DNA of 64,000 nt from Patescibacteria group bacterium (lineage in GTDB: Bacteria; Patescibacteriota; Microgenomatia; UBA10105; UBA927): assembly GCA_038062895.1 (NCBI GenBank), contig JBBTWJ010000006.1, positions 48,862 through 112,861 of the forward strand. The letters run 5' to 3'. Under the pieces are notes generated by a model. The model worked only from the letters and a program-made list of their open reading frames with translations, was not told the origin of the DNA and ran no database searches. A program made the translations under genes and the position numbers. This document shows positions 20,960 to 50,768 of the stretch, piece after piece (within the stretch, counting starts at the first letter, position 1; every line of letters begins with the position of its first letter).

Positions 20960-21784
20960 TTACGTTAATTTCTTCCTCTGGTTCGATAAAAAATTTGAGG
21001 ACTCTATAATACTTTTTCCGGTTTCTTTTTCAAGTTTTTTTCTCGCAACTGCTGCAACACTACCGCCTTTTCGAGCAACAAATCGATGCTGAAAAAAAGC
21101 ATTCGGCTGTTTTTTCTTACTTATTGCTGTCGTAGAAGCTTCCGCCAACATTGTCAGAACCAATTCAAGATTAGTCATATGATCACGAAGATTTTCTTTT
21201 TTGAGATTCTTGTGCTGCTTATAATCGCGGGTCTTCATTCCAGCCCAGGCACGGGTAATATCGTCGGTGAGAATGGCAAATTCCAATCCCTCTTTGACCC
21301 CTCGCTCTTCCCACTCGTTCGTCAATTCTTTTCTAATTTCAATACTTTTCAGTCTTTGGTTAATCCAATCATCGCTTCGCCCGAGATTCCGGTAGGCTTT
21401 TAATGCCCGATTGATCGCCTTTTCTGGGTCTTGAATTTCTTCCACACGTTCATACCCAACCCGGGCAAGCCATAGCTTGAATGGTTCAGCCTTAGGGGAT
21501 GGAATAGATTGAATTATACGAAACACGGATTCCGTATCCGCAGCATCAGTGAGGTATTCCTTGCCATCTATTGCTCTCATTTTCAGTTGGTTACATTTTG
21601 TAACCACCTGACTACTTTCTTTCTTCAAACGAAACTTCATAACTTTCCAATAACTACGAGCATTCGGACTACTTGTTAATGCCTGGATGACATCCACCAC
21701 AGAAAACCACCATTTCTCTCCTTTTTCGTCCCAAACCCGACGAATTTTCTTCCCTTCAAAAATAGCTAAATCTCGTTTCTTCAT
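20960..21784 (-). CDS. Bro-N domain / DNA-damage-inducible protein D (DinD)-like protein
   Basis: 274 aa; N-terminal IRRVWDEKGEKWWFSVVDVIQALT matches Bro-N (antirepressor) domain; C-terminal EFAILTDDITRAWAGMKTRDYKQHKNLKKENLRDHMTNLELV aligns with E. coli DinD C-terminal region. Confidence 0.7.
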   Translation of the reverse strand: MKKRDLAIFEGKKIRRVWDEKGEKWWFSVVDVIQALTSSPNARSYWKVMKFRLKKESSQVVTKCNQLKMRAIDGKEYLTDAADTESVFRIIQSIPSPKAEPFKLWLARVGYERVEEIQDPEKAINRALKAYRNLGRSDDWINQRLKSIEIRKELTNEWEERGVKEGLEFAILTDDITRAWAGMKTRDYKQHKNLKKENLRDHMTNLELVLTMLAEASTTAISKKKQPNAFFQHRFVARKGGSVAAVARKKLEKETGKSIIESSNFLSNQRKKLT

Positions 21785-25060: not shown

Positions 25061-26527
25061 CTACTCCGTGCTCCCTGCCTTTGGTTTTGTCAGGTCGATG
25101 ATAGCAAACCGGTCGTTTCTCACTACAACGGTATAGAGATTAGCCAAATCCCGCGTTTCCCAATCATTATCCGTCGGTGATACCGTCACGTAATGCGTCG
25201 CTCCCATCTCCAGTTTTTTTTCTATATCAAATCCAAGCGGCCACCCTTGACGGTTTGTCTGATACAAAAAAGTGGTATCTCCGTTATACGGCGCGATGAC
25301 CCTCGCATCCTTCGGAAGCAATCTATCTGCCTCCCGCCCGGCCTCGACGATATCCGGCCGGTTAATCCAATAATAGGTTCTGATGGTGTACCAGGAAAAA
25401 GCAAACATAAATAAGAAACAAATAGCAGATAGCAGATAGCAGATAGATCGGGAAAAAGGATTATGAGAAAGAAGAAATGCAAATCCCTTCCCTACATATA
25501 CCGCGACAATGGGAATGAACACTATTTGATAGTAATCGTGCTGCACATTACCGCGCGCAATGATGATGACATATGCAAGTACTCCAATGGTCCACAAGCG
25601 AAAAATCCACCCTTCTTTTTTAGACGGAACCAAAAGGCCTCCTAACCCAAGTGGTATAAGTCCCCAATATCCGAGCATTAATTCTCCCAACCGCTTGGCA
25701 AACAGCCAGTAAAACCATGCTCCTTTGAAGCGGATGTTGCCTTCGTTAAAAAGCCATAGATAAACCGGAATCCCTTCTGGATACTGCAAAATCCACTGTC
25801 GCCACCACCATAATGGAAACAAACTGATAGATGAATAAACACATAATCCAATAACCAACGAGAAGGATAAACCGAAACGGCGCCAAAACAAATATGGGAT
25901 GGGCAAAAGCAAAAACGCCGCTGTGGGTTTAACGAGCAATGCGACTCCCCCGGCTATAGCGGCAAATATCACGAGTAACCAATCAATCCGCTTATCCTTC
26001 CGATCATTATGCTCTGACAATCGAAACATAATATATACGCTGAGTACCGCCCAAAACACCATAAATGGCTCTGGAAGGATAATTCTTCCATAAAAAATAC
26101 TGTACGGAAGTACGGCATAGACCAATGCGCCAATTGTCGCGGCAAGCCTTCCGACAGTCACCGTCATCAGAAGATAAACCAAAATGAGGGTTCCCACGGA
26201 GGCGGAAACAGTCACCAACCGGAGGATTATTTCCATAGGAACTTGTGGCAATAACCTGCTCACCCCGTATGCCACCGACTGATAGAGCGGAACTTCGACC
26301 ATCCGCCATCCCATAGGATTATCTTTTCCGGAAGGGATGTTGGAGAGATCATCAAACCGTGGATGCAGAAGGTCTAAGCCGAACTTAGTAAAATTCCGTG
26401 CCACAGCCGCAGTATCGCTCTGACGCCAGCTGTGCCAATCTGCGACCGCATTCCCGAGGCCGTATAAACGCACGGTCACGGCCAGAAGCGAGATCACAAT
26501 AAGAATAAAAAACTCTATCTTTTTCAT
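25061..26527 (-). CDS. GT-C family membrane glycosyltransferase (PMT_2/ArnT-like dolichyl/undecaprenyl-phosphate-sugar dependent)
   Basis: 488 aa polytopic membrane protein; N-terminal loop with conserved D/E residues (RQSDTAAVARNF...) typical of GT39/GT83 proteins. Confidence 0.65.
   Translation of the reverse strand: MKKIEFFILIVISLLAVTVRLYGLGNAVADWHSWRQSDTAAVARNFTKFGLDLLHPRFDDLSNIPSGKDNPMGWRMVEVPLYQSVAYGVSRLLPQVPMEIILRLVTVSASVGTLILVYLLMTVTVGRLAATIGALVYAVLPYSIFYGRIILPEPFMVFWAVLSVYIMFRLSEHNDRKDKRIDWLLVIFAAIAGGVALLVKPTAAFLLLPIPYLFWRRFGLSFSLVIGLCVYSSISLFPLWWWRQWILQYPEGIPVYLWLFNEGNIRFKGAWFYWLFAKRLGELMLGYWGLIPLGLGGLLVPSKKEGWIFRLWTIGVLAYVIIIARGNVQHDYYQIVFIPIVAVYVGKGFAFLLSHNPFSRSICYLLSAICFLFMFAFSWYTIRTYYWINRPDIVEAGREADRLLPKDARVIAPYNGDTTFLYQTNRQGWPLGFDIEKKLEMGATHYVTVSPTDNDWETRDLANLYTVVVRNDRFAIIDLTKPKAGSTE
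25423..25447. repeat. heptanucleotide tandem repeat (atagcag)x3.5 inside the GT-C gene
   Basis: atagcagatagcagatagcagatag read directly; 21 bp keeps frame, encodes YLLSAIC-like repeat on minus strand. Confidence 0.7.
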
Positions 26528-29500
26528 GGACTTAACCGCATTTTTCTGTGTTCTATGAGCTTGCCGGAAGGATCAAACTCAAATACTTTTTGATTTCTGG
26601 ATTCATAGTCTACGGCATCAAAAGCAGCAGACACCGTAGGCCAGCTGAATACGCGTATGGTGGGATTACGGAATACAAGCCATAACGCGTCCGGAATGCC
26701 CACGGGGAATACCCATGCTTCCCCCAAGCGGATCGGCACGTTTACAAAATGAAATTCCATGGGTTCGCTCTTCCAATAGTCTTCGTACGCCCCATCCATC
26801 TCCACGACAAATTTCCGGGATACTTCCCCGGCGTCATACCAATCGTTTTGCATTTGCTGATGCTGGATAAGCTGCAGGAGGCCCCATGAACATGAAACGA
26901 TGACAACGATTAATACTGCTATCATCCGCCCGTTCCCTAGGAGAAACTGGTACATCTTTTTCAGTATATACACCCCCAAAAGCGCTACCGCTACGGAGGA
27001 GAGATAGCTATACCGTGATGTCATATTCCCCAAACCGATAAATGGCGAAAGTGCGATAAGAAAAAATCCAATACCAAAGAGCCATATTCTTCTGTCTTCT
27101 TTGCCGATCATCCCTCCGTATTTCTTCCACACCCGAACAGCCATGAAACTTATCAGAATGAAAACAAGAGCCGAGGCCATCATATGAGTTTTTGCTGCAT
27201 TTCGGACGACCTGAACGAGAGACAATGAAAGTGGACCCAGAAGTCCGAGAAACGCATACCCAACACTATTGCCGACTACATTAAACGGCAGTTTGGCAAA
27301 ATTATAATTATAATCCCCGCTTAACCAATGGCTGGAAGCTAAATACCGCACCGCCAAATAGATAGGCATCGGAGCAAATAATATGGCATACCACGCATTT
27401 CCCACCCGTCGACGAAATTCCTCCCAACCCTGCATCGCAAACGTATACAAGAGATAAAACAATGGCGTCACGATTCCCAATTCATGAAATAACAGAGACA
27501 ACGTAAAGCATGCGATGGTCAACAGAAAATAGACCCGTTTACCGTTTTCCGTCCAAGCTATATACCATAAAAGACTCGACAGAGAAAAAAATGCAGTAAA
27601 CAGAAATCCCGTTGCTGATACCCAAAATATTGGCTCACTATGCCCGCTAAGCATCAGGAACGCGACGGATGTTAGGGCGGAAAGCAATAAATTCCTTAGC
27701 ACTTTCCTCGCTAGGATAAAAACGAGGAGTGCCACGCCAAAATGGAGCAAAAGCGACACGTTATGATAGACGCTTTGATTGAGCCAAAATACTGAATACA
27801 TGGTGAGAAAATAAATTTTCGCACCCGGCCGGTAGAAAAATCCCTGCGCCTGGGTAAAATAACGTGTTATGGTCCCCACATTGAGGTTACACCGCTCCCC
27901 CGCCGCACTCACGGCCGTCCCACAATCTGCAGCCCAACGAAACCACGTAAAATCATCTCCCACAAAATTATTACGTGACATGGACGAATACAAAACGACG
28001 GTAAGAATGAATAAATATATGGCGATGGCAACCGGAGACAAGAGGACTGACTTGAACAATGTATATAAATCCGCGGGTTTGCGCCCATAAAGCCCCAACG
28101 TCCCGAGCGTAACTCCCAACAACATCCACAGCGTAAAAGCGACCTTTGATGCTTCAAAAACATCGATGAAAAAAGCGTTAATTGCCAAACCTCCCACCCC
28201 GGCGGCCAACCCGATGATGAAGCTTCGGGTTTTATGATCATTGACCAAGGGTAATGTCTTCCAAATATAAATTGTGGTTATAACAAAAATTGCCAAGAAT
28301 GTGCTAAATCCCAATAATCCCACCTCTGCTAACATGCGCAGATAACTATTATCCACAGCCAGTCCTACCGACCCATACCCGCTTCCAAAAAAGATGTTTC
28401 TCCTGAATGTGTCCATGGCTCTGGGCCATTCCCCCTGAAATCTGGTCGTAAACGATAAATCATAGGCAAATACCTTTTTAACCAAGAAATCACCATTGAT
28501 GATGAATACTTCCGCTGACGTCGTAGCTATCTTTGGAATGGGTTCATAGTAAAAATGTCCAAGCTTGCGGATGACGGGCGAAAGGGCAAGATTGATATAT
28601 CCCGTGCCCTGCGGTAAATTCTCGCCGTTTGGCGCATTCGGCTCGATGAAGAGCACCGGATCCGCTTCGATCCGCGTGTAGGGAATGACCAGGACAGCGG
28701 CGGGACTGGCGTGGTTATAGAGATCGGAAACAGTCGTACTAAATGCCTGCCTGACCGTCTTTGGGACAAAGTAGCTATTGGGTACATTCGTCGAGTGGCC
28801 CACCGCTTCTCCTGTGGTAGCATCCACTAAAACCTCGACTTCCTTGACCGTACTGGTAAACCGATCCATGATACTCGGTGAGACGCTCACCATGATCAAC
28901 GCGCCAAATATGATGATAGGAAGAGAAATAAGCACAAGCTTTTTCTTCTGCACAAATACGATAATTCCGACAACTCCGACAAGCGCGAACAATGAAATTC
29001 TGGAAACCGTCATTACCATGACAACCAGCCCCAATAGTGAAGCTGCAGCCAACGCGATCCGCCCGAACCAATTTCTGATACCAAACATCATGCTCACGAG
29101 TATCGGAAGAACAAGCACTAAGTATGCCGCCAAATCATAATGCCCACCAAATGTGGAGGAGACACGGGAGAGTCCCGATAACCGTATCGGAATCCCCTTT
29201 GCAAACTCCTCGTTCATGGTTAAAAATGCAGGGAACCCCACATACTTCTGCCCAATCCCGTAGAGCGTCACTCCTAGGACCGTGACGGCCAACATGACCG
29301 TAACCCACAGGATAAATCGTTTGTCGCGCATGGCACTGTACACAACAAAAAATAAACTCATATATTCGATGCGACGGAGCATACTCAAAAAGGCCACATT
29401 GCCCTGTATATTTCCCAAGGCAGAAAAAATGAATAACAGCCCGTGGATGGTCGACACTGCGCCGATCGCCCAAAAGAGTAATATGGGAAGAGTGAGCGGA

Positions 29501-29706
29501 GTGTTGAAACTGTTTTTGCGCCGGAGAGACGCGATCCCCCAAATCAAAAGAACAAAAACTACTACAAAATCTTCAACACGGACATATACCCACGTATGTT
29601 TGACATCCAGAAGAGGAATTTTGGGGTACAATGGTATAAACGCCAGAAGCGCCAGGGTAAAGAGAAATAACACGTTTGCTTTACAAAACTGAAAGAGCTT
29701 CTTCAT
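26524..29706 (-). CDS. large polytopic membrane protein: O-antigen ligase/polymerase (Wzy_C)-like N-terminal region fused to a second GT-C-like membrane domain
   Basis: 1060 aa; >20 predicted TM segments; N-terminal 550 aa resembles O-antigen ligase-like proteins (large periplasmic loop, RSFIIGLAAGVGGLAINAFF); C-terminal 500 aa is a further multi-TM domain with extracytoplasmic tail. Confidence 0.55.
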   Translation of the reverse strand: MKKLFQFCKANVLFLFTLALLAFIPLYPKIPLLDVKHTWVYVRVEDFVVVFVLLIWGIASLRRKNSFNTPLTLPILLFWAIGAVSTIHGLLFIFSALGNIQGNVAFLSMLRRIEYMSLFFVVYSAMRDKRFILWVTVMLAVTVLGVTLYGIGQKYVGFPAFLTMNEEFAKGIPIRLSGLSRVSSTFGGHYDLAAYLVLVLPILVSMMFGIRNWFGRIALAAASLLGLVVMVMTVSRISLFALVGVVGIIVFVQKKKLVLISLPIIIFGALIMVSVSPSIMDRFTSTVKEVEVLVDATTGEAVGHSTNVPNSYFVPKTVRQAFSTTVSDLYNHASPAAVLVIPYTRIEADPVLFIEPNAPNGENLPQGTGYINLALSPVIRKLGHFYYEPIPKIATTSAEVFIINGDFLVKKVFAYDLSFTTRFQGEWPRAMDTFRRNIFFGSGYGSVGLAVDNSYLRMLAEVGLLGFSTFLAIFVITTIYIWKTLPLVNDHKTRSFIIGLAAGVGGLAINAFFIDVFEASKVAFTLWMLLGVTLGTLGLYGRKPADLYTLFKSVLLSPVAIAIYLFILTVVLYSSMSRNNFVGDDFTWFRWAADCGTAVSAAGERCNLNVGTITRYFTQAQGFFYRPGAKIYFLTMYSVFWLNQSVYHNVSLLLHFGVALLVFILARKVLRNLLLSALTSVAFLMLSGHSEPIFWVSATGFLFTAFFSLSSLLWYIAWTENGKRVYFLLTIACFTLSLLFHELGIVTPLFYLLYTFAMQGWEEFRRRVGNAWYAILFAPMPIYLAVRYLASSHWLSGDYNYNFAKLPFNVVGNSVGYAFLGLLGPLSLSLVQVVRNAAKTHMMASALVFILISFMAVRVWKKYGGMIGKEDRRIWLFGIGFFLIALSPFIGLGNMTSRYSYLSSVAVALLGVYILKKMYQFLLGNGRMIAVLIVVIVSCSWGLLQLIQHQQMQNDWYDAGEVSRKFVVEMDGAYEDYWKSEPMEFHFVNVPIRLGEAWVFPVGIPDALWLVFRNPTIRVFSWPTVSAAFDAVDYESRNQKVFEFDPSGKLIEHRKMRLSP

Positions 29707-36793: not shown

Positions 36794-37525
36794 TTATTTT
36801 GACAAATATCCCTTCCTAATCAACTGTCTATAAAATTCCATGATATTCTTTATATATTCCAACGTGTCATGGATAAGCCGAACCGAAGATTTTTTATCAA
36901 ATCGTCGAACAAAAAGCACCGGCTCTTCGCGTATCTTCAGTCCTTCCAAACAGGCAAACGTCATAATTTCCGTGTCCCAGAACCAACCGCTGTTCTTTGT
37001 CTTCTTGAGGATTGGCAGTATTTTTTTACGATCAAAAAACTTATATCCCGTCTCTGTATCTTTCAACGGTATTCCAAAAATCGACCGCACCAGCCACGAG
37101 TACCCGCGGGAAAGAATCGCCCGGTGAAACGACGTGAGTCCTTCCCGGTATACCCGTAACCCCGTCACCACATCCGCTTCCCCACCTAGGATCATGCGGA
37201 CGAACTGTGGTATATAGACTGGTGATACCTCAAGATCAATATCAATAAACCCGACGACCTTCCCGCGCGCGATGGCAATCCCATCCCGCACCGATTTTCC
37301 CCGACCCTGATTTACGTCATGATAGACAGCCCGGAAATTTTTATTCTTTTTGACGAGCGACGCAATGATCTCAGCGGTCTTATCTTCGCTTTTATCATCG
37401 ACAAAAATAAGCTCGTAAGTTAATACACTGCCGCGTAATACGGATATAACGCAATCAACACTTTGCCGGAGATGCGCCTGCTCGTTATAGCAGGCGATGA
37501 TGAGAGAAAGATCAATCCGTTTCAT
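36794..37525 (-). CDS. glycosyltransferase family 2 (polyprenyl-phosphate sugar synthase-like)
   Basis: 243 aa; MKRIDLSLIIACYNEQAHL...VDDKSEDKT, DIDL DxD motif. Confidence 0.85.
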   Translation of the reverse strand: MKRIDLSLIIACYNEQAHLRQSVDCVISVLRGSVLTYELIFVDDKSEDKTAEIIASLVKKNKNFRAVYHDVNQGRGKSVRDGIAIARGKVVGFIDIDLEVSPVYIPQFVRMILGGEADVVTGLRVYREGLTSFHRAILSRGYSWLVRSIFGIPLKDTETGYKFFDRKKILPILKKTKNSGWFWDTEIMTFACLEGLKIREEPVLFVRRFDKKSSVRLIHDTLEYIKNIMEFYRQLIRKGYLSK

Positions 37526-37540
37526 AAGCGGGGTTTTCGG

Positions 37541-38116
37541 TTATATACCAATCAGTTCACGCACTGCATTTTTTACTGCCATCCCGAATGGGGGTATATA
37601 TTTTTTGAGCTTACTTTTGTCTAGCTCTTCTGTATTCCACTCGTGGGAACCATCCGTTCTTTTCCCGAGGGAGATTAAATACAGCATGTCTAAAACAGCT
37701 TTTTCCGGTTCCGCTACATACGTGCCTCCTGCCAAATTGAATCCAAAAAATAATTCCCGTTTTAGTTGAGAATAATCACATTCAACATCCATCAGTGTAA
37801 TTTTTTTTGAATGCCGTGTGGTGGCAAGCGTCAAGTTATACAACCCCTGATTTATGATTCCATACTTAGACAGCGCACTTTCAAAACTGATATAGCTGGG
37901 ATAGTAAAGTTTCGTAGCAAGCTTTTCCACATCGAAAGAATGACCACGCAGCATATACACTCCCCTGGCAACTTTTACTATAGAACCGGAATCCACCAAC
38001 CTCTTTATAGCCGTATTGATATGCACCTCATTGGGAAAAAGCTTTTTCACATCTGCAATATCAAAAACATCCTTCGCAAGTTGTTCTATTTTTTCAATTA
38101 ATATATTTTTTCTCAT
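37541..38116 (-). CDS. AbiEi-family antitoxin-like transcriptional regulator (type IV TA/abortive infection)
   Basis: 191 aa; N-terminal winged-helix-like AbiEi_4 pattern (IKRLVDSGSIVKVARGVYML); translationally coupled (4-nt overlap) with AbiEii-like gene. Confidence 0.65.
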   Translation of the reverse strand: MRKNILIEKIEQLAKDVFDIADVKKLFPNEVHINTAIKRLVDSGSIVKVARGVYMLRGHSFDVEKLATKLYYPSYISFESALSKYGIINQGLYNLTLATTRHSKKITLMDVECDYSQLKRELFFGFNLAGGTYVAEPEKAVLDMLYLISLGKRTDGSHEWNTEELDKSKLKKYIPPFGMAVKNAVRELIGI

Positions 38117-38817
38117 AAAGAAAACTCCTCTAGTATATTACGGTGATTTTTTGGAATGAACGGATTTAACTTATCCATCAATTCTTTTTGGGTATACTTG
38201 AATTCCTTTTTAATCGTAAATATTCTATTCAATTTTTGATGTATATACCATGCGTCAAACAAATCTCTTGGTTCTCTTCTAACTCTTGTCTTGAGTATGC
38301 CTAATTTATCCTCTAGAATAGACTCAATCGTGTAAACTCTTGCGGAAATCTCAAGATTATTAAATGGACTTCGCAGAAGTCCAACAACAGAGACAAAATC
38401 CCTCACGTTTTTATTAATTTCAACTTTAATACCGATGGGAATTGGTTTAAATCCCGTGTCAAACACAATCTTGGCAAATAGTGTATGGTGTTTATCATAT
38501 ATATCTTTCACCCGTGCTTCAGGAATAAGACCAGGTAATTTCTCTATCGCATTCTTGAACGTTGTGTACGGAATACTTTTAATCAAAGAGAAATCTAAAT
38601 CTTCGGAAAATCGAAAAGAGCCGTAGGCCAGACGCAAAGCCGTCCCCCCTTTAAAAACCAAGTCTCTTTCAAATGAAGATCTAAAGAGTACATCCAGTAT
38701 GTACATCTGATAATGCTCTTTGAGAATATTATCGGTAATCGTGGAATGTTGAGCCGCAAATTTCTCAGCCTGGTCCTGTGTTAACATACTATACATAAAT
38801 GTACAGTATCTTGACAC
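38113..38817 (-). CDS. AbiEii/AbiGii-family nucleotidyltransferase toxin (DUF1814)
   Basis: 234 aa (GTG start at 38817, ATG alternatives at 38796/38787); motif FKGGTALRLAYGSFRFSEDLDF characteristic of AbiEii NTases. Confidence 0.7.
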   Translation of the reverse strand: MSRYCTFMYSMLTQDQAEKFAAQHSTITDNILKEHYQMYILDVLFRSSFERDLVFKGGTALRLAYGSFRFSEDLDFSLIKSIPYTTFKNAIEKLPGLIPEARVKDIYDKHHTLFAKIVFDTGFKPIPIGIKVEINKNVRDFVSVVGLLRSPFNNLEISARVYTIESILEDKLGILKTRVRREPRDLFDAWYIHQKLNRIFTIKKEFKYTQKELMDKLNPFIPKNHRNILEEFSL

Positions 38818-38838
38818 TGATCACAAGGAGATCTTTTA

Positions 38839-38885
38839 CCGGAGATGCGCCTGCTCGTTATAGCAAGCGACGATGAGAGAAAGAT
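38839..38885. repeat. 47-bp duplicate of the 5' coding end of the GT2 gene (direct repeat of 37466-37512)
   Basis: ccggagatgcgcctgctcgttatagcaagcgacgatgagagaaagat vs 37466-37512, 45/47 identical, same orientation; encodes remnant LSLIVACYNEQAHLR then stop; the two copies bracket the AbiEi/AbiEii pair. Confidence 0.75.
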
Positions 38886-38903
38886 AAACATGCTTCACGG
38901 TGT

Positions 38904-39647
38904 TTATTTTTGCGCAATCGCCACTAACGTCGGCTTACATTCACGAAGAAGTATCCCCTGGGATAGTGCGATCATACGCCAAAAAGACTCTCCCATAAAT
39001 GCAATCAACGGCATGAGTGTCGTCTTTAGGAGCCGAAGTATCGGATTATCATCGTACGGCGTATAGGAGTTCATTTCAAAAAAACTATTCCTCGTCAACC
39101 CGCAATTGCGGAAAAGTTGGGATAAGGAAACCGTGTTGTACAGAGACTTATGGGTAATATCGGCGAATAATAACGTATTAGCGAAGGGGTGATTAGCGTT
39201 TGGCAATGAAACTAAGAGAGTTCCGTCTTTTTGCAACATGCGCTGGACAGATGTTAGAAGTACTGCTGCGTCGCCGGGTGAATAGTGCTCTAATACATCA
39301 TATAAGACTATCAGACGAAATGTGTCTTTATGTGACTCATAGAAAGATTTTTCCGCCCGCTCATCCACGAGCTGGACATCAAAACCATTTTTTCTACATA
39401 TATCGACGCATTCCTTCGAATAATCCGTGCCTTTGATATTTGTGTATCCGAGTGTTTTGAGAGCCGCTACGTTATGTCCCACCCCTGATCCAATTTCTAA
39501 AATAGCACTATCCTTCTGTTTGGGAAGATATGGAAGGAAATATGATTTCCAGACGTACAAACGCTTGCGGAATACGGCATCTGTGGCCGCGGCGACATAT
39601 TGGTAATGAGTGGATACATATCGGGAATAAAATTTACTTTTTTTCAT
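38904..39647 (-). CDS. class I SAM-dependent methyltransferase
   Basis: 247 aa; motif I ILEIGSGVGHN, motif post-II VLYDVLEHY. Confidence 0.8.
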   Translation of the reverse strand: MKKSKFYSRYVSTHYQYVAAATDAVFRKRLYVWKSYFLPYLPKQKDSAILEIGSGVGHNVAALKTLGYTNIKGTDYSKECVDICRKNGFDVQLVDERAEKSFYESHKDTFRLIVLYDVLEHYSPGDAAVLLTSVQRMLQKDGTLLVSLPNANHPFANTLLFADITHKSLYNTVSLSQLFRNCGLTRNSFFEMNSYTPYDDNPILRLLKTTLMPLIAFMGESFWRMIALSQGILLRECKPTLVAIAQK

Positions 39648-42888: not shown

Positions 42889-43949
42889 ATGGCAGGAGTA
42901 TCCTCGGTCTCAAGCTCAAGCCCGTCGCTCAAGTATTGAAATTGCTGTGGTCCCATCGTTTTGGCCCACGCGACCATCTTTGCGACACCCTGCGCAAGCG
43001 TCACACTTGTTTTATACCCCAATAGCTTCACCGCCTTGTCATGAGTACAATAGGCCTCCTTAACTTCCTGAGGTCGGAGAGCCAGGTATTTGGGCTTCAA
43101 GTGCTTTGGGACGTTCCCATCAGGAAAAAATGTTTGGATCACAATATCGGACAACTGATTGATCGTATACTCCTCTTTCGGTCCGATATTAATTATCTCT
43201 CCATTGACAGCATCTAAGAAGCCAGTTTTTACAAAATACGGATTAAAGTCATCTATGTAGGTGAATGCCCGTTTTTGCTCGCCATCTCCATAAATATAAA
43301 AATTCTTGTTGCTGAGAAGACAATTGATAAATATCCCGATGACATTCCTATACGGATCCGCTAAATTTTGCTTCGGACCATAGACGTTATGCGGTCGAAC
43401 GATGACATACTCAAATCCATGAACTTTTGATAAAATTTCAGTAGCCTCCTCCATAGCGGTCTTGGCTATGGCATAAACATCTTCAGGAATCCGCCTCATG
43501 CTTTCCGTAAAGGGAGTCTGTTGAGCACCATAGACACTCATAGAACTCGTCAGGACTACTTTCTTTAAACCATGACGGATACTTGGAATAAGTGTATAAA
43601 GATAAGCAAGATAATTACGTTCAGTCGCCGATATGGGGGTAAATTGACTCCTGCCTTCTGTGGCGTCAGCGGCTAAATGGTAGAGAAGTTCCGGTTTGAC
43701 TCCTGCGATATATTTTTCGGTTTTATCTTTATCACGCAGATCCAATACCGTAAATTTTGATTTCGGACTCACATTTCTGGTATACCCTCCCGAAAGGTCA
43801 TCGACGCCATATACCTCGTGACTCCCCATCGCGACAAGCGAGTCCACGAGATGGCTTCCCATGAAACCGGCAGCTCCGGTCACTAGAATTCTCATGGGTT
43901 TATTATACAGGGACTCGCCTTTCTTTGGAAGCGAGGAAGACCAATGCAA
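42867..43949 (-). CDS. NAD-dependent epimerase/dehydratase (SDR; UDP-glucuronate decarboxylase/4-epimerase-like); probable start Met at 43895
   Basis: MRILVTGAAGFMGSHLV Rossmann motif; YxxxK present (YAIAK). Confidence 0.8.
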   Translation of the reverse strand: MHWSSSLPKKGESLYNKPMRILVTGAAGFMGSHLVDSLVAMGSHEVYGVDDLSGGYTRNVSPKSKFTVLDLRDKDKTEKYIAGVKPELLYHLAADATEGRSQFTPISATERNYLAYLYTLIPSIRHGLKKVVLTSSMSVYGAQQTPFTESMRRIPEDVYAIAKTAMEEATEILSKVHGFEYVIVRPHNVYGPKQNLADPYRNVIGIFINCLLSNKNFYIYGDGEQKRAFTYIDDFNPYFVKTGFLDAVNGEIINIGPKEEYTINQLSDIVIQTFFPDGNVPKHLKPKYLALRPQEVKEAYCTHDKAVKLLGYKTSVTLAQGVAKMVAWAKTMGPQQFQYLSDGLELETEDTPAIWSKKLI

Positions 43950-46089
43950 CTGCCAAAACAGTCAAAAGAGAAACTCCCAAGCCCCATGTCACGTAGTTCT
44001 GCGGCTCAAATTCTACGACGCCTTCATATGTACCGGGGGTAGAAATTAAAAAGCTATTTAATCCTTGCGGTGATCGCTCGGACTTAACCATCGTATTTCC
44101 CACTCTTAACACCCACCCAGGATGGTAACTCTGGGAAAAATAGACGGTAGCCGGAGCATTAACGGTCAAAGAAACCGCGTATTGATCCATACGGATTCGT
44201 CTGTATGTAATCGACTCGTTGGTCGAAACCCAAAAAAGATCTCTATGCCGTGGAGTCTGGTAGATCGTAAGATTGCCGGAACGGATCTTGGTAAGCCATC
44301 CGACCCCATCAAGAACCGTTTCGTATTCCTGCCGCTTCTTCTTATCATATTTTCGATCACTCAAAAATAACTCACCCAGCGAGTCATATGGGATCATGAC
44401 ATACCCTATCCCCAAATCTTCTAAAAGCGCCTTACCCGTGGGCGCCTCCAGTTTCACTTTCAAATCAGCGGCCGTCGTAACGGCAAAGAGTGGCTCGCTC
44501 TCAATCTGCATATGATCAAGTGTCCCATAAGAAAACCGCTGTAGACGGGGCACCCAAAGCGTGCGGGCAAAATTTGTCTGCGCCTGCAAGAAATGCTCAA
44601 GTTCCGCGTATTCCTGCGGCACCGTCTGCGCAACATACGTCCCCCCAAGCTGGCCGAGGACAGCGGGACGGATGGTGAAAAACCAGAAGAAGAGGAAGGT
44701 AGCTAGTAGTATGTAGTTCGTAGTAAGGAGGATACTATTTGTCTTTTTTGCCTTGCTACTTACCACCTGCTGCAAGCTACGGAAAAGTTCGCTTAGTTGC
44801 TTCAGCGTAAACGGAATCAAGATTGAATATGCTAGCGCGATCAACACGTACCATTTCGTGGGATCCCGGAACATCGCAAATCCGGGGACGTGGGTAAACA
44901 TCCATTGATACACGATTCCAAACGGTTCCTGCGCGCCCTTGGCAAGAAATGTGCCCAGTATGGCAAGGAGAGCAAAAAATCCTATCTGTTGTCTGCTCTT
45001 TGCTCTCTGCCCCGCCCATGCGAGCGCTGCAAACGCGAGCACTGGTAGCACGAGAAACTCAGGCTGTAAAAAATATGTCTTTCCAAACACATTCTCCGGC
45101 CAGTTGGGATGGAGAAGCGAGAGAGCGTGGGAAAAATCCGCGAAACTATAAAATTTAATCGAATCTATTGACGTGTATGCCGACCCCAAATCTCCGATCG
45201 GGTTACTTCTCATGGCCACCATCGGGACGACCCAAAACGCATTAAGCAGAGCTGCAATACCTACAGCAAACGCAAAACCAAGAAACGTCCAGAGTAATAC
45301 TTGAAAAAAATGTTCTTTTATATTAACGAAGTAACCCTTCCTCGCCGGCCCGCTTCGCCCGCCTAGCCGCGAGGCTGGCCGAATCGAGGCGAGCAGGCGG
45401 GGAACGAACGAACTAACAACCCACAATGAAACCCCTACCATCGTCACGTACGCAATCCGGGGATCGATCATGAGTTGAAACCCTAATGATAATCCTGTAA
45501 TCAAGGAATATTTGTTATTTGCTATTTGATATTTGTTATTTACACTCTGGTCGCATACTAATGTTAAAAGCTTGATAAAGCTCGCCAGAACAAGAGGAGC
45601 CAGACCGTAGGCAATGGCCACTCCCATCTGCCCGCCCCCCGTCACCATGAGGATGTAGGTATTCGTGGTATAGACGAGCGACGCGACTATCCACCACGGA
45701 AACATATCTCTTAAGTCTTGAGTCTTAAGTCTAAAGTCTTGAATCACAGCTTCCCAGAGCTTTTTGGACCCGTAAACAGATAACGCGATAAACAACCCAA
45801 ACCATCCGACTTTATACACAATATTCCATGGGATGTGCAGCCACTGATTAAAAATGACTACGATAGCAGAGCCAAAAACATGCAATCCGAGGAGGGGCTG
45901 CATACCCCCAATCCCATTCCCTAACCATGATTGCCAAAGTGTAGGGAGAAGAGAGAAACTCCTCAAAAAGTCCTGGGTATAATATGGCCAATCTCCGCCA
46001 ATAATCAACGGGTTTAAAAGCCAATTACGGAATATATACAAAACCGTAATAAACACAACCGATACACAAAAATAATAATATTTTTTCAT
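43903..46089 (-). CDS. large GT-C-like polytopic membrane protein (paralog 1 of 3)
   Basis: 728 aa; ~12 N-terminal TM segments, large extracytoplasmic middle region, C-terminal TM anchor; N-terminal loop LNPLIIGGDWPYYTQD resembles LKPGEMDLGGDNSRLYFYD of the 46950 and 53368 proteins; carries GC-rich hairpin insert at 45340-45405. Confidence 0.5.
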   Translation of the reverse strand: MKKYYYFCVSVVFITVLYIFRNWLLNPLIIGGDWPYYTQDFLRSFSLLPTLWQSWLGNGIGGMQPLLGLHVFGSAIVVIFNQWLHIPWNIVYKVGWFGLFIALSVYGSKKLWEAVIQDFRLKTQDLRDMFPWWIVASLVYTTNTYILMVTGGGQMGVAIAYGLAPLVLASFIKLLTLVCDQSVNNKYQIANNKYSLITGLSLGFQLMIDPRIAYVTMVGVSLWVVSSFVPRLLASIRPASRLGGRSGPARKGYFVNIKEHFFQVLLWTFLGFAFAVGIAALLNAFWVVPMVAMRSNPIGDLGSAYTSIDSIKFYSFADFSHALSLLHPNWPENVFGKTYFLQPEFLVLPVLAFAALAWAGQRAKSRQQIGFFALLAILGTFLAKGAQEPFGIVYQWMFTHVPGFAMFRDPTKWYVLIALAYSILIPFTLKQLSELFRSLQQVVSSKAKKTNSILLTTNYILLATFLFFWFFTIRPAVLGQLGGTYVAQTVPQEYAELEHFLQAQTNFARTLWVPRLQRFSYGTLDHMQIESEPLFAVTTAADLKVKLEAPTGKALLEDLGIGYVMIPYDSLGELFLSDRKYDKKKRQEYETVLDGVGWLTKIRSGNLTIYQTPRHRDLFWVSTNESITYRRIRMDQYAVSLTVNAPATVYFSQSYHPGWVLRVGNTMVKSERSPQGLNSFLISTPGTYEGVVEFEPQNYVTWGLGVSLLTVLAVALVFLASKERRVPV

Positions 46090-46949: not shown

Positions 46950-49900
46950 CTATTTTCTCAAAAATAGCTTAAGACACAGAAAAAGGATAATAAGTAAACC
47001 AAATCCTGACAGCAATAAACTTCCGTAAAATAACTTCTGAGACGTCATTTCTATGATAAGGGTGTAATCGCTCCGGTTATTCACATCCTCGGGCTTAATA
47101 ACCCATGAATTCGCATATCCGTTTACCGGCAAATGGGACTTTTCTGCGATCGGATCAAATCCCCACGTGTCAAATGTATCCCGGTTCCAAAAATCAATTC
47201 TATGTTTGCCTTCTTGGATCGCTCCGTTTGCATAGCTTGCGACGATCGCATTGCTTCCCTCGGTCGTTTCAGGAATAATTGACTTTGTAACTGATCCTAA
47301 TATGCCTCCCACAACTCTCGCCAGCATGCCTTTTATGGTTTTTGCTTCATGTTCGAGGCTGGGATAAAACAGTTTCCATTTTTGGTTAAATGACTGGGAC
47401 AAGACAAGTGCGTACGGGCCTTTCGCATCCCTCACCTCCACCGTATATTTTGTGGGGTTTATTTGGGTGAACGTGATGCGTGGAATCGCAGAAATAGTGG
47501 ATTGCGGGATGGATTTTAATACGATATTAGGATTATAAATTTTTTGCACAGTCAGATTTTTAATCTCTATTTTCTTAATTGTTTCTTCATCCTGACTCAC
47601 GACATCATCCAAATCCCTCGTGATTTGTAATGAAGCTGAAGAAGCATCTTTTGCGGATAAAACGGCAACCTTAAACTTCCGCCATTCCTTCGACCTGATC
47701 GTTTCCTCATATGCGTCATTCACAAATCTGTTGGTTTCTGTATCACCCTTTTCATGCAAAACCATTAAAAAGTTCTGATCATTGGTCAAATAGTCAAAAG
47801 AAATGGCGTATATTGTATCTCCCTCCCAATTGGGGATGTCACGCAAGAGTCCGCTTGTATCACTTAAAAAGTTATACATTACGGCCAGAGTTACCGGATC
47901 GGTCTCTATCGCTCCTTGTTCTTTCCCTAAGCTTATTTGTTCCGCCACAGTCCAATGCGTTTGTGCGACCAAATTTGGAACTGAACGAATCGAAAGAACC
48001 AGCGGCAATGACTGTTTATTTTCAACTTGCATATCGCTATATTTCAGCCATTCCTCATATTGAGCTTCCATGGGTGATAATTTCATCCCACCAACACTCA
48101 AATCTATTGGAAGATCATCCATGTCGTTCTTATTGACGTATACTTCATATTTTCCATTTGGAAGAGGATTTTCCACAATATACGGAATGTTCCCAACATC
48201 CGGCAAGTCAAGACTCAATGAATTGTGTATATCAATAAACATCCCATCTATTAAACCCGAAAGGTACCGCCTGTCTTCAGTGTTTAACGAAGAATCTTGC
48301 CGTATGGCAGTCCTCAACTTCTCCTTATGCTCCTTTAAATATGTCTTTAATTCGACCTTGCTAGTAGTTCTTGAATATGCGGATTGATTGGTAGAATCTA
48401 TCTCGATAATAATTTTTTTTATCGCTTGTTGATATCGTGCGAGCGTGACCTCCCATGAATTGTATTCACTAAACTTAAAAAACTCCCAGAGCGTTGGCTC
48501 TCTCCACTGTTGAGCGAATTGGGATATGCTCGCAATGTTTCTCCGAAGCGGAGTATCTTTTAGTTCATAGAGTTCGTTGATACGCTTCTCTGCAAAATAG
48601 ATACTCCTGTCAATATACGCATCATTGATGTCTCCGTATCGATTGAGATCCCGTTTTTCACGCAATACGACCAATGGGTAAATGAACGAAGAAAGTTTCC
48701 TCGATACGGTGGGAGAAACAAACCGGTCAGACTTTTTCTTTTTAAAAAAATCAAAAATCGTACTGGTGTTTCTTGCTTTCAAAAGGACGGTATCAAATAA
48801 TTCCTGCCTGGCGTTGAAAATCGTACTGTCGTCAAAGAAGGCTACCCGTTTATCGGTATAAAAAGAAACGGGAGTACTCGCGTTTACCGCAATAACGTCA
48901 CCGGAGTATGCGATACTTTTTGGAGTATAAATATGCGGAATATAGGACGTATCATCGAACTCATAAATATGAAATGTATTGGCAATGGTTTTTATCTCTT
49001 TCACCCCGAGTCCTTTTATGAATTCTTTGTACCCCTCTTGAGTGTCAGGAAAAAAATCACGGGCACGTGTATACGGTAACGCCGGAAAATTATCTCCATA
49101 AATATACGGATCAGCGTTATAAAAAATGTATTTAATATTCAACATAATAAGAATATTTTTTAACTTGGTGTAATTTTTTTCTTTTGCAGCAGCCAGAATA
49201 CTCTCACCAAAAACACCAAGCTCTGCTATGCTGGTAAATTCATTCCTTGCTGCCAAGTATGTGATCGTGGACGGACCGATATATGCTGCATCATTTTCAC
49301 CTTTCAGCACTTGATATCCATGGTCGTTAAGCGGTAACGATAATATCTTGCCATCCACAGGGAGTGACCTGATAAAGGCAAGCACATCTTCATACACCGG
49401 GTCCATTTTTATATGGGACCGGATGTCTTTACTTTGCCAAAGCTTCGTATCTGTCAATTGTCCACTGATAAATTGCCATGAGGTTGAGACCAGGAGAATG
49501 ACGATGAACCCCGTGAGGACATATCTTTCAGCCGCTCTAATTTTTGTAAACACACTGGAGAGAGCCAAACCAACCAGTACCGTGTAAAAAAACAAATACG
49601 CCCATTGCCACTGGCCATAAAAAACACGGAACATGGCAAATCCGGGCAACCGGAACGCCAACTCATACAGCTTCAGTCCGATATGAGTAATATTGGCCGA
49701 AACAAAAAATAGCGTAATGAGAAAAAATATCGTACTTAACAGGTATAGTTTGCTCTTATTCCATAATAATCCCAGCACAAACAGGAGTGGAAAAAGTATA
49801 AAGATCCACCAATAAAATTTTGGCTCCGTATATTGCAACAGGCCGAGCAGCGCATAACTCACTTTGATGGACGGTGCTGTGGCCACGAAATATTTGAGTC

Positions 49901-50768
49901 CCCACTCTAATTTGCCTTGAGCTCCGAAAATAAAATCGCCTAAGAAACTTCCCGGAGTCAATATGCTCACTATTTGCGGTATGAGATGAAATGCCTGCAG
50001 AAGAACAAAAAGCACCAGGCCAACTGCAATTTTTGCTATCGGGATTGATTTCCTTTTTATATATTTGGTGTAAATGCCAAGAAACAGAACTGCGAGCGGG
50101 AAAAAAGAAAAAAATGTGGGAGAACCAATGAAACTAAAATTTGAAGAAAAAATAAATGTCACAAGGAGCGACACCAACAGGTATCTCATACCGCCGGTCA
50201 GAAAAAACCGCAAAAGGAGAAAAAACAATAACGGATTGAGAAAAACTACATTCATGGGCAAAAGTGGATACCCCCACCAATGAATAGGATTTGGAGAAAA
50301 TGTGTAATAAAGACCAGCGAGAATTCCCGATGTCTCTATTATTGATTGATTCGGCCTTACTGCTTCTTCCTCTCCTTTCAGGAGCTCCTTTACTACCAGA
50401 TAACAGGCAAAGAATCCAAGGCTTAGATTGAGCCCATGAAATATCGAAATAACTATTGTCGGGGAATGTACTATTGATTTAATAAATGCCAGGAGCAAAA
50501 AGAATGGAATCGCATAGTAGCTCAAATTTTCTCCCCCGAACGCCGAATGAGAAACGCTATATGTTGACTGGCTCAAAAGATACGCAATGGGATCATAAAA
50601 ATACAGTCTGCTGTTATCTCCTCCTAGATCCATTTCTCCCGGCTTAAGCCAGAAAAACGGAATGAAAAAAATCAGAATGGTTATGACAAAAACCAATAGC
50701 GAATAACGTGATATTTTCATGTTCGTAATTCCTGAATAATTCCAACGATCATAAAGAGAAATAACCAA
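46950..50768 (-). CDS. giant GT-C-like membrane protein (paralog 2; AftD/DUF3367-like architecture); probable start Met at 50720
   Basis: 1272 aa; N-terminal FWLKPGEMDLGGDNSRLYFYDP and RLPGFAMFRVFYGQWQWAYLFFY shared with 53368-55779 protein; ~14 TM then ~800 aa extracytoplasmic region and C-terminal TM anchor. Confidence 0.55.
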   Translation of the reverse strand: MVISLYDRWNYSGITNMKISRYSLLVFVITILIFFIPFFWLKPGEMDLGGDNSRLYFYDPIAYLLSQSTYSVSHSAFGGENLSYYAIPFFLLLAFIKSIVHSPTIVISIFHGLNLSLGFFACYLVVKELLKGEEEAVRPNQSIIETSGILAGLYYTFSPNPIHWWGYPLLPMNVVFLNPLLFFLLLRFFLTGGMRYLLVSLLVTFIFSSNFSFIGSPTFFSFFPLAVLFLGIYTKYIKRKSIPIAKIAVGLVLFVLLQAFHLIPQIVSILTPGSFLGDFIFGAQGKLEWGLKYFVATAPSIKVSYALLGLLQYTEPKFYWWIFILFPLLFVLGLLWNKSKLYLLSTIFFLITLFFVSANITHIGLKLYELAFRLPGFAMFRVFYGQWQWAYLFFYTVLVGLALSSVFTKIRAAERYVLTGFIVILLVSTSWQFISGQLTDTKLWQSKDIRSHIKMDPVYEDVLAFIRSLPVDGKILSLPLNDHGYQVLKGENDAAYIGPSTITYLAARNEFTSIAELGVFGESILAAAKEKNYTKLKNILIMLNIKYIFYNADPYIYGDNFPALPYTRARDFFPDTQEGYKEFIKGLGVKEIKTIANTFHIYEFDDTSYIPHIYTPKSIAYSGDVIAVNASTPVSFYTDKRVAFFDDSTIFNARQELFDTVLLKARNTSTIFDFFKKKKSDRFVSPTVSRKLSSFIYPLVVLREKRDLNRYGDINDAYIDRSIYFAEKRINELYELKDTPLRRNIASISQFAQQWREPTLWEFFKFSEYNSWEVTLARYQQAIKKIIIEIDSTNQSAYSRTTSKVELKTYLKEHKEKLRTAIRQDSSLNTEDRRYLSGLIDGMFIDIHNSLSLDLPDVGNIPYIVENPLPNGKYEVYVNKNDMDDLPIDLSVGGMKLSPMEAQYEEWLKYSDMQVENKQSLPLVLSIRSVPNLVAQTHWTVAEQISLGKEQGAIETDPVTLAVMYNFLSDTSGLLRDIPNWEGDTIYAISFDYLTNDQNFLMVLHEKGDTETNRFVNDAYEETIRSKEWRKFKVAVLSAKDASSASLQITRDLDDVVSQDEETIKKIEIKNLTVQKIYNPNIVLKSIPQSTISAIPRITFTQINPTKYTVEVRDAKGPYALVLSQSFNQKWKLFYPSLEHEAKTIKGMLARVVGGILGSVTKSIIPETTEGSNAIVASYANGAIQEGKHRIDFWNRDTFDTWGFDPIAEKSHLPVNGYANSWVIKPEDVNNRSDYTLIIEMTSQKLFYGSLLLSGFGLLIILFLCLKLFLRK

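Follow-up and report, generated by a model that had tools for sequence, protein, structure and literature searches.

A toxin-first AbiE cassette behind a relic glycosyltransferase gene start in a Patescibacteria glycan locus, and its possible entry by recombination

We analyzed a 64,000-nt stretch of contig JBBTWJ010000006.1 (assembly GCA_038062895.1, Patescibacteria group bacterium; an uncultured groundwater organism, probably of the Gottesmanbacteria), hereafter referred to as the window, in which an AbiE-type toxin-antitoxin gene pair lies between an intact GT2 glycosyltransferase gene and a short relic of a GT2 gene start. Judging by its sequence, the segment 37541-38832 is a self-contained AbiE-type toxin-antitoxin/abortive-infection module that belongs to a widespread toxin-first subfamily. 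We hold with moderate confidence that this module, working as its homologues do, entered the 5′ end of GT2 by recombination in an invariant core of that gene. The distribution of similar relics in related genomes further suggests that the GT2 5′ end is a repeatedly used recombination hot spot and not a one-off accident.

The start of the GT2 gene is present twice

All genes around the insertion are on the minus strand, and their order is given here in the direction of transcription (Table 1). A repeat search of the window revealed a direct repeat of 63 nt with 87% identity (37462-37524 and 38835-38897) and a spacing of 1,373 nt. A first-pass annotation of this DNA had reported a 47-mer repeated at 37466-37512 and 38839-38885 with 45/47 identical positions, and this pair is real. 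It had also taken the 47-mer to be the first 47 bp of GT2, which is wrong: the gene starts at 37525 and the 47-mer comprises its nt 14-60. The homology is in fact longer than the 47-mer, extending over 63 nt up to both start codons, and the upstream copy is therefore a relic gene start (stub), more than a repeated internal piece of the gene. This relic, which was also detected by nhmmer (E = 2.7e-7), is 63 nt long and lies on the minus strand 1,373 nt upstream of the true GT2 start. Its reading frame begins with a GTG (38898-38896) located 5 nt past the stop codon of the preceding methyltransferase gene (38904-38906), continues for 19 more codons and ends with a TAA (38838-38836), encoding MKHVYLSLIVACYNEQAHLR followed by a stop. 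An 18-nt core of the repeat has only two occurrences in the whole window, both within the repeat copies, against a chance expectation of 0.06.

The differences between the two copies are unevenly distributed. Six of the eight mismatches between relic and GT2 are crowded into nt 1-16, and only two are found in the remaining 47 nt (binomial p = 0.0046); one of the latter two creates the relic stop, TAA standing where the intact gene has CAA. Nucleotides 17-63 of the relic are nearly identical to the resident GT2, including shared allele-specific codons for NEQAHLR, as would be expected if both copies derived from a single target. The first 16 nt do not fit such an origin, as they differ at 6/16 positions and correspond to another GT2-start allele (MKHVY, vs MKRID on the intact gene). 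The upstream copy thus does not reproduce the resident start but has another allele of it.

The GT2 site is empty in some relatives and holds arrays of cassettes in others

Orthologues of the GT2 gene are numerous, with 70-82% identity, and the loci that contain them are labelled L014 and so forth. In L188, whose GT2 is the closest (82% identical), and in L023, the GT2 site is unoccupied. The genes upstream are the same as in the window (methyltransferase-313 and GT4-418) and are followed directly by GT2 with a single gene start, without AbiE genes and without the 247-aa methyltransferase gene (methyltransferase-247) that precedes the relic in the window. A single GT2 start is also found in L019, L024, L104 and L105. 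The empty sites in L188 and L023 indicate that the cassette segment is an insertion relative to these relatives, and they provide the relatives lacking the segment and having one repeat copy for which the first-pass annotation had suggested a search.

Other loci of the clade are occupied by one or several modules. L014, together with L020, carries an ATPase gene, a relic, the pair AbiEi184/AbiEii261, a relic, the pair AbiEi211/AbiEii280, a relic and a toxin-first cassette before GT2 (3 relics). L021 has a relic with a remnant, a relic, the ATPase gene, a relic, the pairs 198/239 and 184/269, a relic and the pair 191/232 before GT2 (4 relics), while L189 has a relic, a toxin-first cassette, a relic, the ATPase gene and the pair 184/269 (2 relics). 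In L118, a relic, the pair 191/232, a relic and a pair comprising a Crp-type helix-turn-helix (HTH) protein and a DUF6036-like nucleotidyltransferase precede GT2 (2 relics), and in L106 a relic is followed by the promoter remnant of a Crp-type HTH/nucleotidyltransferase cassette and then by GT2 (1 relic). Together with the window, this amounts to 13 GT2-start relics in six loci of one Gottesmanbacteria clade, with up to four modules at one site and with AbiE pairs, an ATPase gene and an HTH plus nucleotidyltransferase-like pair as module types. The general form is (relic-cassette)n-GT2, of which the window is the n = 1 case. When 157 loci were each compared with themselves, extra copies of a locus's own GT2 start were found only in the clade with at least 77% GT2 identity; in about 150 more distant loci, the sole extra match was a 16-nt match on the opposite strand.

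Several further observations concern the content of these arrays. The AAA_14/DUF4143 ATPase gene acts as a cassette at L021:4056-5366, where relics are present on both sides, and at L022:8531-9823, L014:266-1501 and L189:7285-8556; L022 has no other insert, and there the gene shares ATGA with the GT2 start and lacks a relic upstream. The L118 cassette (L118:2845-4042) encodes a Crp-type winged-helix protein of 198 aa and a 205-aa protein with a weak DUF6036 nucleotidyltransferase match, and of a cassette of this type only the promoter region is left between relic and GT2 at L106:9904-10000. The AbiE pairs of canonical order (184/26x and 191/232) follow a defunct toxin-first promoter and about 45 nt similar to the 5′ end of a toxin-first abiEii gene (L021:7015-7112, L021:8576-8673, L014:1490-1545 and L189:8540-8590), which suggests that earlier toxin-first cassettes were replaced by these pairs or received them as insertions. 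On the other side of GT2 in L189, between the GT2 and hexapeptide-transferase genes (L189:10748-11483), there is a pair resembling an HTH_17 antitoxin and a PIN-domain toxin, and no duplicated gene start was seen there. A run of N at L014:1546-1645 coincides exactly with a relic that is resolved at L020:1596-1655, a second assembly of the same species, showing that these repeats do break short-read assemblies.

Relic mosaics and the age of the cassette

Among the relics, the 20 nt corresponding to GT2 nt 17-36 are 15-19/20 identical and the sequences on both sides vary, which indicates that the relics are mosaics with their exchange point in the invariant core. The left 16 nt often match live GT2 starts found elsewhere: the L106 relic equals the L104 start at 16/16 positions, relic 1 of L118 equals the L105 start at 16/16, and relic 1 of L014 equals the L189 start at 15/16. 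In this last case, the gene start behind the 184/26x pair is in live use for GT2 in L189, whereas in L014 and L021 it is a relic inside the array. On its right side, a relic tracks the cassette that comes after it. The flank preceding the 211/280 pair is common to relic 1 of L014 and relic 2 of L189, whose left parts differ, and the flank preceding the toxin-first promoter is joined to six different upstream contexts. New cassettes thus appear to have been added on the GT2 side of older ones, with the former start left behind each time. The window deviates from this pattern in that the right part of its relic corresponds to the resident GT2, including the NEQAHLR codons, and not to the type usually linked to the toxin-first cassette.

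The same cassette with the same relic-to-promoter junction is present at this GT2 in L014/L020 and L189, and as remnants in L021, which represent three other species. In comparisons with L014 and L189, the synonymous divergence (dS) of the window cassette is 0.83-1.17, while that of the flanking hexapeptide-transferase and DegT genes is 1.8-2.2; GT2 itself has a dS of 0.98 vs L014 and of 2.6 vs L189. Identity at four-fold sites is 0.60-0.64 in the cassette and 0.34-0.45 in the downstream genes. GT2 itself is most similar to L014 at its 5′ end, with a soft and only suggestive drop of sliding-window identity at ~320 nt. As the dS of the cassette is below that of its flanks, the cassette, perhaps with the adjoining part of GT2, was seemingly exchanged after the species split. 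It is fixed in every recovered contig of the window population (10 contigs read for each of two flanking genes) and is not a recent copy from any sampled relative. The sole young-looking feature is the 45/47 tract, which may stem either from an acquisition by recombination in comparatively recent times or from a gene conversion involving the two copies. The first-pass annotation had described a recent insertion that duplicated its target. An insertion it is, relative to the empty-site relatives, but its recency is not borne out given the fixation, the junction shared with other species and the dS values. As for the duplication, nt 17-63 are indeed shared between the copies, but a single step does not account for a relic whose first 16 nt belong to another start allele or for the 13 relics that separate cassettes in relatives.

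A toxin-first AbiE pair with a putative promoter of its own

The toxin gene abiEii has the capacity for 227 aa from the ATG at 38796; its longest open reading frame (ORF) begins at a GTG at 38817, and the start shared across homologues is the ATG of MLTQ at 38787 (224 aa). Its product matches Pfam PF08843 (DUF1814) with 80.2 bits against a cut-off of 22.5 (E = 3e-22), is recognized by PADLOC (6e-24) and has 4o8s and 4ok0 as relatives in the PDB. The catalytic motifs GG (residues 50-51) and DLD (66-68) are kept, as can be read from FKGGTAL...SEDLDF, and their positions correspond to G49/G50 and D67/D69, which were mutated in the streptococcal toxin by Dy et al. The partner protein of 191 aa is annotated as hypothetical by NCBI and matches the PADLOC AbiEi model over residues 12-179 (1e-31). 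An AlphaFold model built from 33 homologues (mean predicted local confidence, pLDDT, 86.8) had only two strong Foldseek neighbours, namely AbiEi of Streptococcus agalactiae (6y8q, E = 1.6e-6) and Rv2827c (1zel, TM 0.67). These matches identify the partner as a COG5340 AbiEi protein with a winged-helix N-terminal domain and a predicted C-terminal antitoxicity domain. The ratio of nonsynonymous to synonymous divergence (dN/dS) is 0.05-0.15 for the two genes (0.05-0.14 for abiEii) in comparisons with their counterparts in two other species, indicating purifying selection. We therefore accept the AbiE assignment that the first-pass annotation had made for both proteins, now with profile searches (Pfam and PADLOC) and the fold match to 6y8q behind it, and the 4-nt overlap between the abiEii stop and the abiEi ATG (ATGA) supports its proposal of translational coupling.

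We identified more than 1,000 homologues of AbiEii, of 219-235 aa, and several hundred of its partner. Seven genomic contexts were examined: the window, L014, L100, L101, L102 (Leptolinea tardivitalis, Chloroflexi), L184 and, from Shapirobacteria, L185. In 7/7 of them the toxin gene comes first, with an AbiEii of 224-229 aa followed by an AbiEi of 190-197 aa and a 4-nt overlap. The first-pass annotation was thus correct in noting an order opposite to the canonical one, but this order is not peculiar to the present insertion. In published accounts, the gene for the COG2253 toxin lies downstream of that for the COG5340 antitoxin (Dy et al., 2014, PMC3985639; Arrowsmith et al., 2026, bioRxiv 10.64898/2026.01.19.700257), and in a limited literature search we found no paper that mentions a toxin-first AbiE branch. 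The window pair belongs to this undescribed but common branch of a known family; it is an AbiE-family module with a variant architecture, and gene order is not a mechanistic requirement.

No flanking-gene duplications were found around the toxin-first cassettes of L100, L101 and L102, which shows that the duplication goes with the GT2 site, not with the cassette. The L100 copy (L100:6001-7247, contig CAZLDC010000009) belongs to the same metagenome-assembled genome (MAG) as the empty-site locus L023, so that an empty-site genome has the cassette elsewhere; there it heads another glycan operon, and its stop overlaps the start of a DegT aminotransferase gene. In L101 the cassette is located between two GT1 genes. 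On long contigs of the Patescibacteria examined, all toxin-first cassettes are in glycan loci, except for the Shapirobacteria copy.

Upstream of abiEii we propose a promoter with a putative -35 hexamer TTGTGA (38826-38821), a 17-nt spacer and a -10 hexamer TACATT (38803-38798). An imperfect palindrome made up of ACTGTACATT followed by TATGTATAGT (38807-38788) spans the -10 region and extends into the start codons. This promoter/operator pattern is unique within the window. A scan with a consensus promoter found sites no more numerous than in shuffled sequences, and because such a simple scan is not above chance, our promoter call is based on conservation across genomes. The leader of about 58 nt between relic and toxin gene, with its -35, 17-nt spacer, TACATT and palindrome, is conserved upstream of 7/7 cassettes, at different genomic sites and in different phyla, whatever the neighbouring genes. 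The Leptolinea equivalent has a perfect 18+18 palindrome behind TTGACA-N17-TACATT, and the -35 is TTGACA in three relatives vs TTGTGA in the window. The conserved promoter places the left end of the mobile unit at ~38832, a few nucleotides upstream of the -35. From this conservation, the cassette appears to have its own promoter and operator of an autoregulated type, which would imply a nearly leaderless mRNA. The 38-nt promoter/operator pattern had 0 exact matches among JGI metagenome contigs. An Rfam search over 37300-39100 returned a chance-level match only, which indicates that relic and leader are not a known RNA. By analogy with characterized relatives, AbiEi would repress the operon at the palindrome and neutralize AbiEii, and free AbiEii would arrest growth, probably by nucleotidylating tRNA acceptor ends.

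How the cassette may have reached the GT2 site

The reading that we favor is recombination between a donor carrying relic, module and GT2 and a recipient with an empty site. Donor DNA would be supplied by uptake, with homologous recombination as the most likely route, and the donor relic and the donor GT2 start would both pair with the recipient's single GT2 start. The recipient's native MKHVY start would then remain as the relic, and the MKRID start region arriving with the module would become that of the working gene; an MKHVY-type start is also present in close relatives. Nucleotides 17-63 of the recipient would be doubled, giving the 45/47 tract, if both crossovers took in the same stretch of recipient sequence; alternatively, the tract could result from later gene conversion between copies 1.37 kb apart. 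Units would be joined and exchanged within the 20-nt GT2 core without transposition or a dedicated integrase. Transformation can create duplications via alternative pairing of repeats on sister chromatids (PMC3784515), and Patescibacteria have been described as competent and as having recombination genes (PMC12455944). Restriction-modification genes were found inserted with target duplications of 30 to 400 bp, without mobility genes and in mostly competent species (PMC2853133).

The genes adjoining the arrays comprise glycan enzymes, the AAA_14/DUF4143 ATPase and toxin-antitoxin pairs, with no recombinase, transposase or integrase among them; genes farther away in these genomes were not searched. 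Viral contigs scanned with AbiEii yielded no relative, and hence no evidence for a phage vector, and a tblastn search of plasmids gave one weak match in Ammonifex that was uninformative on gene order. We also considered integration of a Campbell-type circle, which would put donor sequence in relic nt 17-63 and thus misfits the shared allele-specific codons unless gene conversion followed.

Several points weigh against recombination in the core as the origin of the insertion, or against parts of our description of the module. There are at least five types of relic-to-cassette junction, ending at GT2 nt ~63-75 with the promoter immediately after, and since homologous recombination does not explain them, each type needs a founding illegitimate join. 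For this step, the parallel is the "insertion with long target duplication" known from restriction-modification genes, a process that is itself still unexplained (PMC2853133). Old relics have kept 15-19/20 positions of the core and as few as 11-20/27 of nt 37-63, and a site-specific system predicts the same. The lower dS of the cassette may partly reflect its composition. Its GC content is 36.8% vs 43.5% for the window, which is not extreme, as 12% of equal-sized windows are as low; low GC is accordingly a weak sign of foreign origin. AbiEi remains under curated cut-offs (Pfam AbiEi_4, 22.8 vs 25; NCBIfam TAA_AbiEi, 53.5 vs 150). The basis is formed by metagenome contigs or MAGs with only six stub-bearing loci, one of which, L014, has a scaffold gap inside its array that is resolved in L020. 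Finally, we infer every step of the route from patterns in the sequences.

A broader possibility, which we put forward only tentatively, is that the first ~70 nt of GT2, with the 20-nt core, are the attachment site of an integrase-less cassette-collecting system, an integron analogue, in Gottesmanbacteria. If this were true, such an analogue would rely on RecA or on an unrecognized recombinase and would gather, in front of a surface-glycan operon, toxin-antitoxin/defence modules of the winged-helix plus nucleotidyltransferase kind as well as the ATPase gene. With every insertion the gene would gain a new start while the old one became a relic, and such relics would provide portable homology by which cassettes spread between genomes.

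Other explanations fare less well. The insertion could have been a single recent step in which a free AbiE cassette entered GT2 at codon ~21 and a 47-bp target was duplicated, both copies deriving from the resident gene. This would account for the 45/47 identity, the NEQAHLR codons common to relic and resident gene, the empty sites in relatives and the lower GC of the insert, and its form matches published insertions with long target duplication (PMC2853133). However, the homology runs 16 nt further to the start codon, with the 6/16 mismatches concentrated there (p = 0.0046), and the cassette has a dS of 0.83-1.17 to other copies. Furthermore, the relic-to-promoter junction is identical in L014, L189, L021 and L118, which means that it is older than the window lineage or was imported ready-made. 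We consider a one-step origin improbable.

The array form, (relic-cassette)n-gene, could instead point to a dedicated integron-like site-specific system with the GT2 core as attachment site and a recombinase encoded elsewhere, in which circles carrying one relic reinsert at the core. Exchange is confined to the 20-nt core, which is kept in relics with decayed flanks, several cassette types share one site, and new cassettes appear beside the gene, as seen for the start following 184/26x (live in L189, relic in L014 and L021). Nevertheless, no integrase or recombinase is among the annotated genes near any array, relic ends vary (nt ~63-75), and no fixed crossover position is apparent. Live GT2 alleles, too, are most conserved in the core, where homologous recombination would resolve anyway, and the same cassette occurs in L100, L101 and L102 without a flanking repeat. 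A system of this kind seems to us unlikely.

Units sharing one junction (relic plus toxin-first promoter) are repeated in tandem in a single genome, at L021 positions 3585, 7015 and 8524, which might suggest purely local evolution, that is, tandem duplication of an ancestral cassette and GT2 start by unequal crossing-over and divergence in place without horizontal input. Neighbouring cassettes, however, share only 26-41% protein identity while the intervening relic cores are 15-19/20 identical, the left parts of relics are those of live GT2 starts in other genomes, species differ in the order and content of their arrays, and cassette dS is below that of the flanking hexapeptide-transferase and DegT genes; local evolution is therefore quite improbable. 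An assembly artefact, in which a chimeric join of strain variants produced a false duplication, has next to no credibility even though repeats of this length can mislead short-read assemblers and L014 has a gap inside its array, because 8 further contigs, obtained from other Hainich groundwater samples through two assembly pipelines, show the same arrangement with 0 mismatches along as much as 1,560 nt, and analogous arrays are present in NCBI, ENA, JGI and Logan assemblies.

Relation to known systems

AbiE toxin-antitoxin systems have been assigned to type IV and recently proposed as type VII (Dy et al., 2014, PMC3985639; Arrowsmith et al., 2026, bioRxiv 10.64898/2026.01.19.700257). We compared the window pair with the AbiEi-AbiEii pairs of Streptococcus agalactiae and Lactococcus and with MenA3-MenT3 (Rv2827c-Rv2826c) of M. 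tuberculosis. Like these, it comprises a DUF1814/PF08843 nucleotidyltransferase with GG and DxD motifs and a two-domain winged-helix partner, arranged in a bicistron with a 4-nt overlap and a promoter palindrome. Unlike them, it is toxin-first, its nucleotidyltransferase is short (224-227 aa), its AbiEi is below curated thresholds, and its putative operator is a single palindrome spanning the -10 and reaching into the start codon, so that the mRNA would have almost no leader.

Insertion with long target duplication was reportedly described for restriction-modification gene complexes by Nobusato and colleagues in 2000. Furuta et al. (2010; PMC2853133) found repeats of 46-47 bp at 44/46 identity, inserts of low GC and hosts that are mostly naturally competent, and they propose a life cycle of insertion followed by amplification via the repeats. 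The window resembles these cases in having an insert of less than 20 kb that is a complete addiction-type module with no mobility gene, and a flanking repeat of more than 30 bp that is single-copy in related genomes (47-63 nt in the window; single in L188 and L023) (PMC2853133). By this analogy, the manner of insertion would have its closest published precedent in another class of addiction modules. Here, in contrast, the cargo is a toxin-antitoxin pair, the repeat is a gene start and the gene thereby remains intact, the two copies carry different start alleles, and the site is reused, giving arrays of unlike cassettes.

Integron cassettes may be promoter-bearing or promoterless, and many of those in chromosomal integrons are toxin-antitoxin modules. 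The GT2 arrays are similar to integrons in being one-directional series of small cassettes with a repeated recombination site between them and new cassettes at the gene-proximal end. They differ in that no integrase was found beside the arrays, the repeats are collinear relics of a coding sequence with variable ends, unlike a structured attC, and the cassettes have their own promoters.

A further parallel is given by the minimal mobile elements of Neisseria, said to have been described by Saunders and Snyder in 2002, which are thought to move by transformation and homologous recombination of their flanks. In these elements (the term is used in PMC3082526 and PMC1797815), as in the GT2 loci, different whole-gene cassettes are found at one site between conserved genes. 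Unlike the GT2 loci, they hold one cassette at a time and have no duplicated gene start; here, one flank is only ~20-60 nt long and is re-created with each cassette.

The genomes of Patescibacteria are tiny and are frequently portrayed as containing few defence and mobile elements. In the loci described here, toxin-antitoxin modules are located inside surface-glycan operons, which are likely phage-receptor loci, and they belong to a widespread toxin-first AbiE branch whose antitoxin is missed by curated models. One conserved gene start has repeatedly captured different modules with no visible recombinase, and the relic starts form a readable trail of these events. It is this multi-genome pattern of a gene start capturing modules, with a relic each time, that we regard as above routine, based on six metagenomic loci and a mechanism that we infer. 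If recombination in the core is indeed the mechanism, "insertion with long target duplication" would extend from restriction-modification genes to toxin-antitoxin modules and arrays, and the GT2 loci would be a testable case of competent, streamlined bacteria building small defence islands from short homology alone.

Organization of the surrounding glycan locus

The window is mainly one glycan-biosynthesis locus, at least over 21-60 kb, and GT2 is the first gene of a conserved block of GT2, hexapeptide-transferase and DegT aminotransferase genes. The position of the cassette within this large locus, between a methyltransferase and the GT2 gene, is as the first-pass annotation had described it. 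The insert measures 1.29 kb and contains abiEii and abiEi only, with no mobility gene.

Table 1. Features around the insertion, listed in the direction of transcription.
Feature	Coordinates	Strand	Basis or remark
Methyltransferase gene (S-adenosylmethionine-dependent, 247 aa)	38904-39647	-	Pfam Methyltransf_23, 2e-16; upstream neighbour
Spacer, 5 nt			Between methyltransferase stop and relic GTG
Relic GT2 start (stub)	38836-38898	-	Repeat search, nhmmer, mosaic comparison
Upstream 47-mer copy	38839-38885	-	45/47 to 37466-37512
Non-coding stretch, 40 nt			Between relic and AbiEii gene
Putative promoter and operator	38787-38832	-	Cross-genome conservation
abiEii	38113-38796	-	Pfam PF08843, PADLOC, PDB 4o8s/4ok0, dN/dS
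abiEi	37541-38116	-	PADLOC, AlphaFold model and Foldseek
Spacer, 15 nt			Between AbiEi gene and GT2
GT2 5′ end homologous to relic	37462-37525	-	Includes 20-nt invariant core TTTCTCTCATCATCGCCTGC (gene nt 17-36)
Intact GT2 glycosyltransferase gene (243 aa)	36794-37525	-	Pfam PF00535, 1.4e-26; orthologues with 70-82% identity and conserved downstream synteny

According to tblastn synteny, methyltransferase-247 is absent from the syntenic loci L023, L188 and L106, where GT4-418 stands directly before GT2 or the relic. The gene shares 14 nt with the GT4 gene, and no relic is associated with it; it may represent a separate gain, or it may have been lost in the relatives.

Two other observations were made in the glycan locus. 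Four huge ORFs lack a Pfam match at E <= 1e-4, namely 46950-50768 (1,272 aa), 43903-46089 (728 aa), 53368-55779 (803 aa) and 26524-29706 (1,060 aa). In addition, a 274-aa protein with a BRO-N domain, which is common in phage and virus genes, is encoded at 20960-21784 among the glycosyltransferase genes of the locus.

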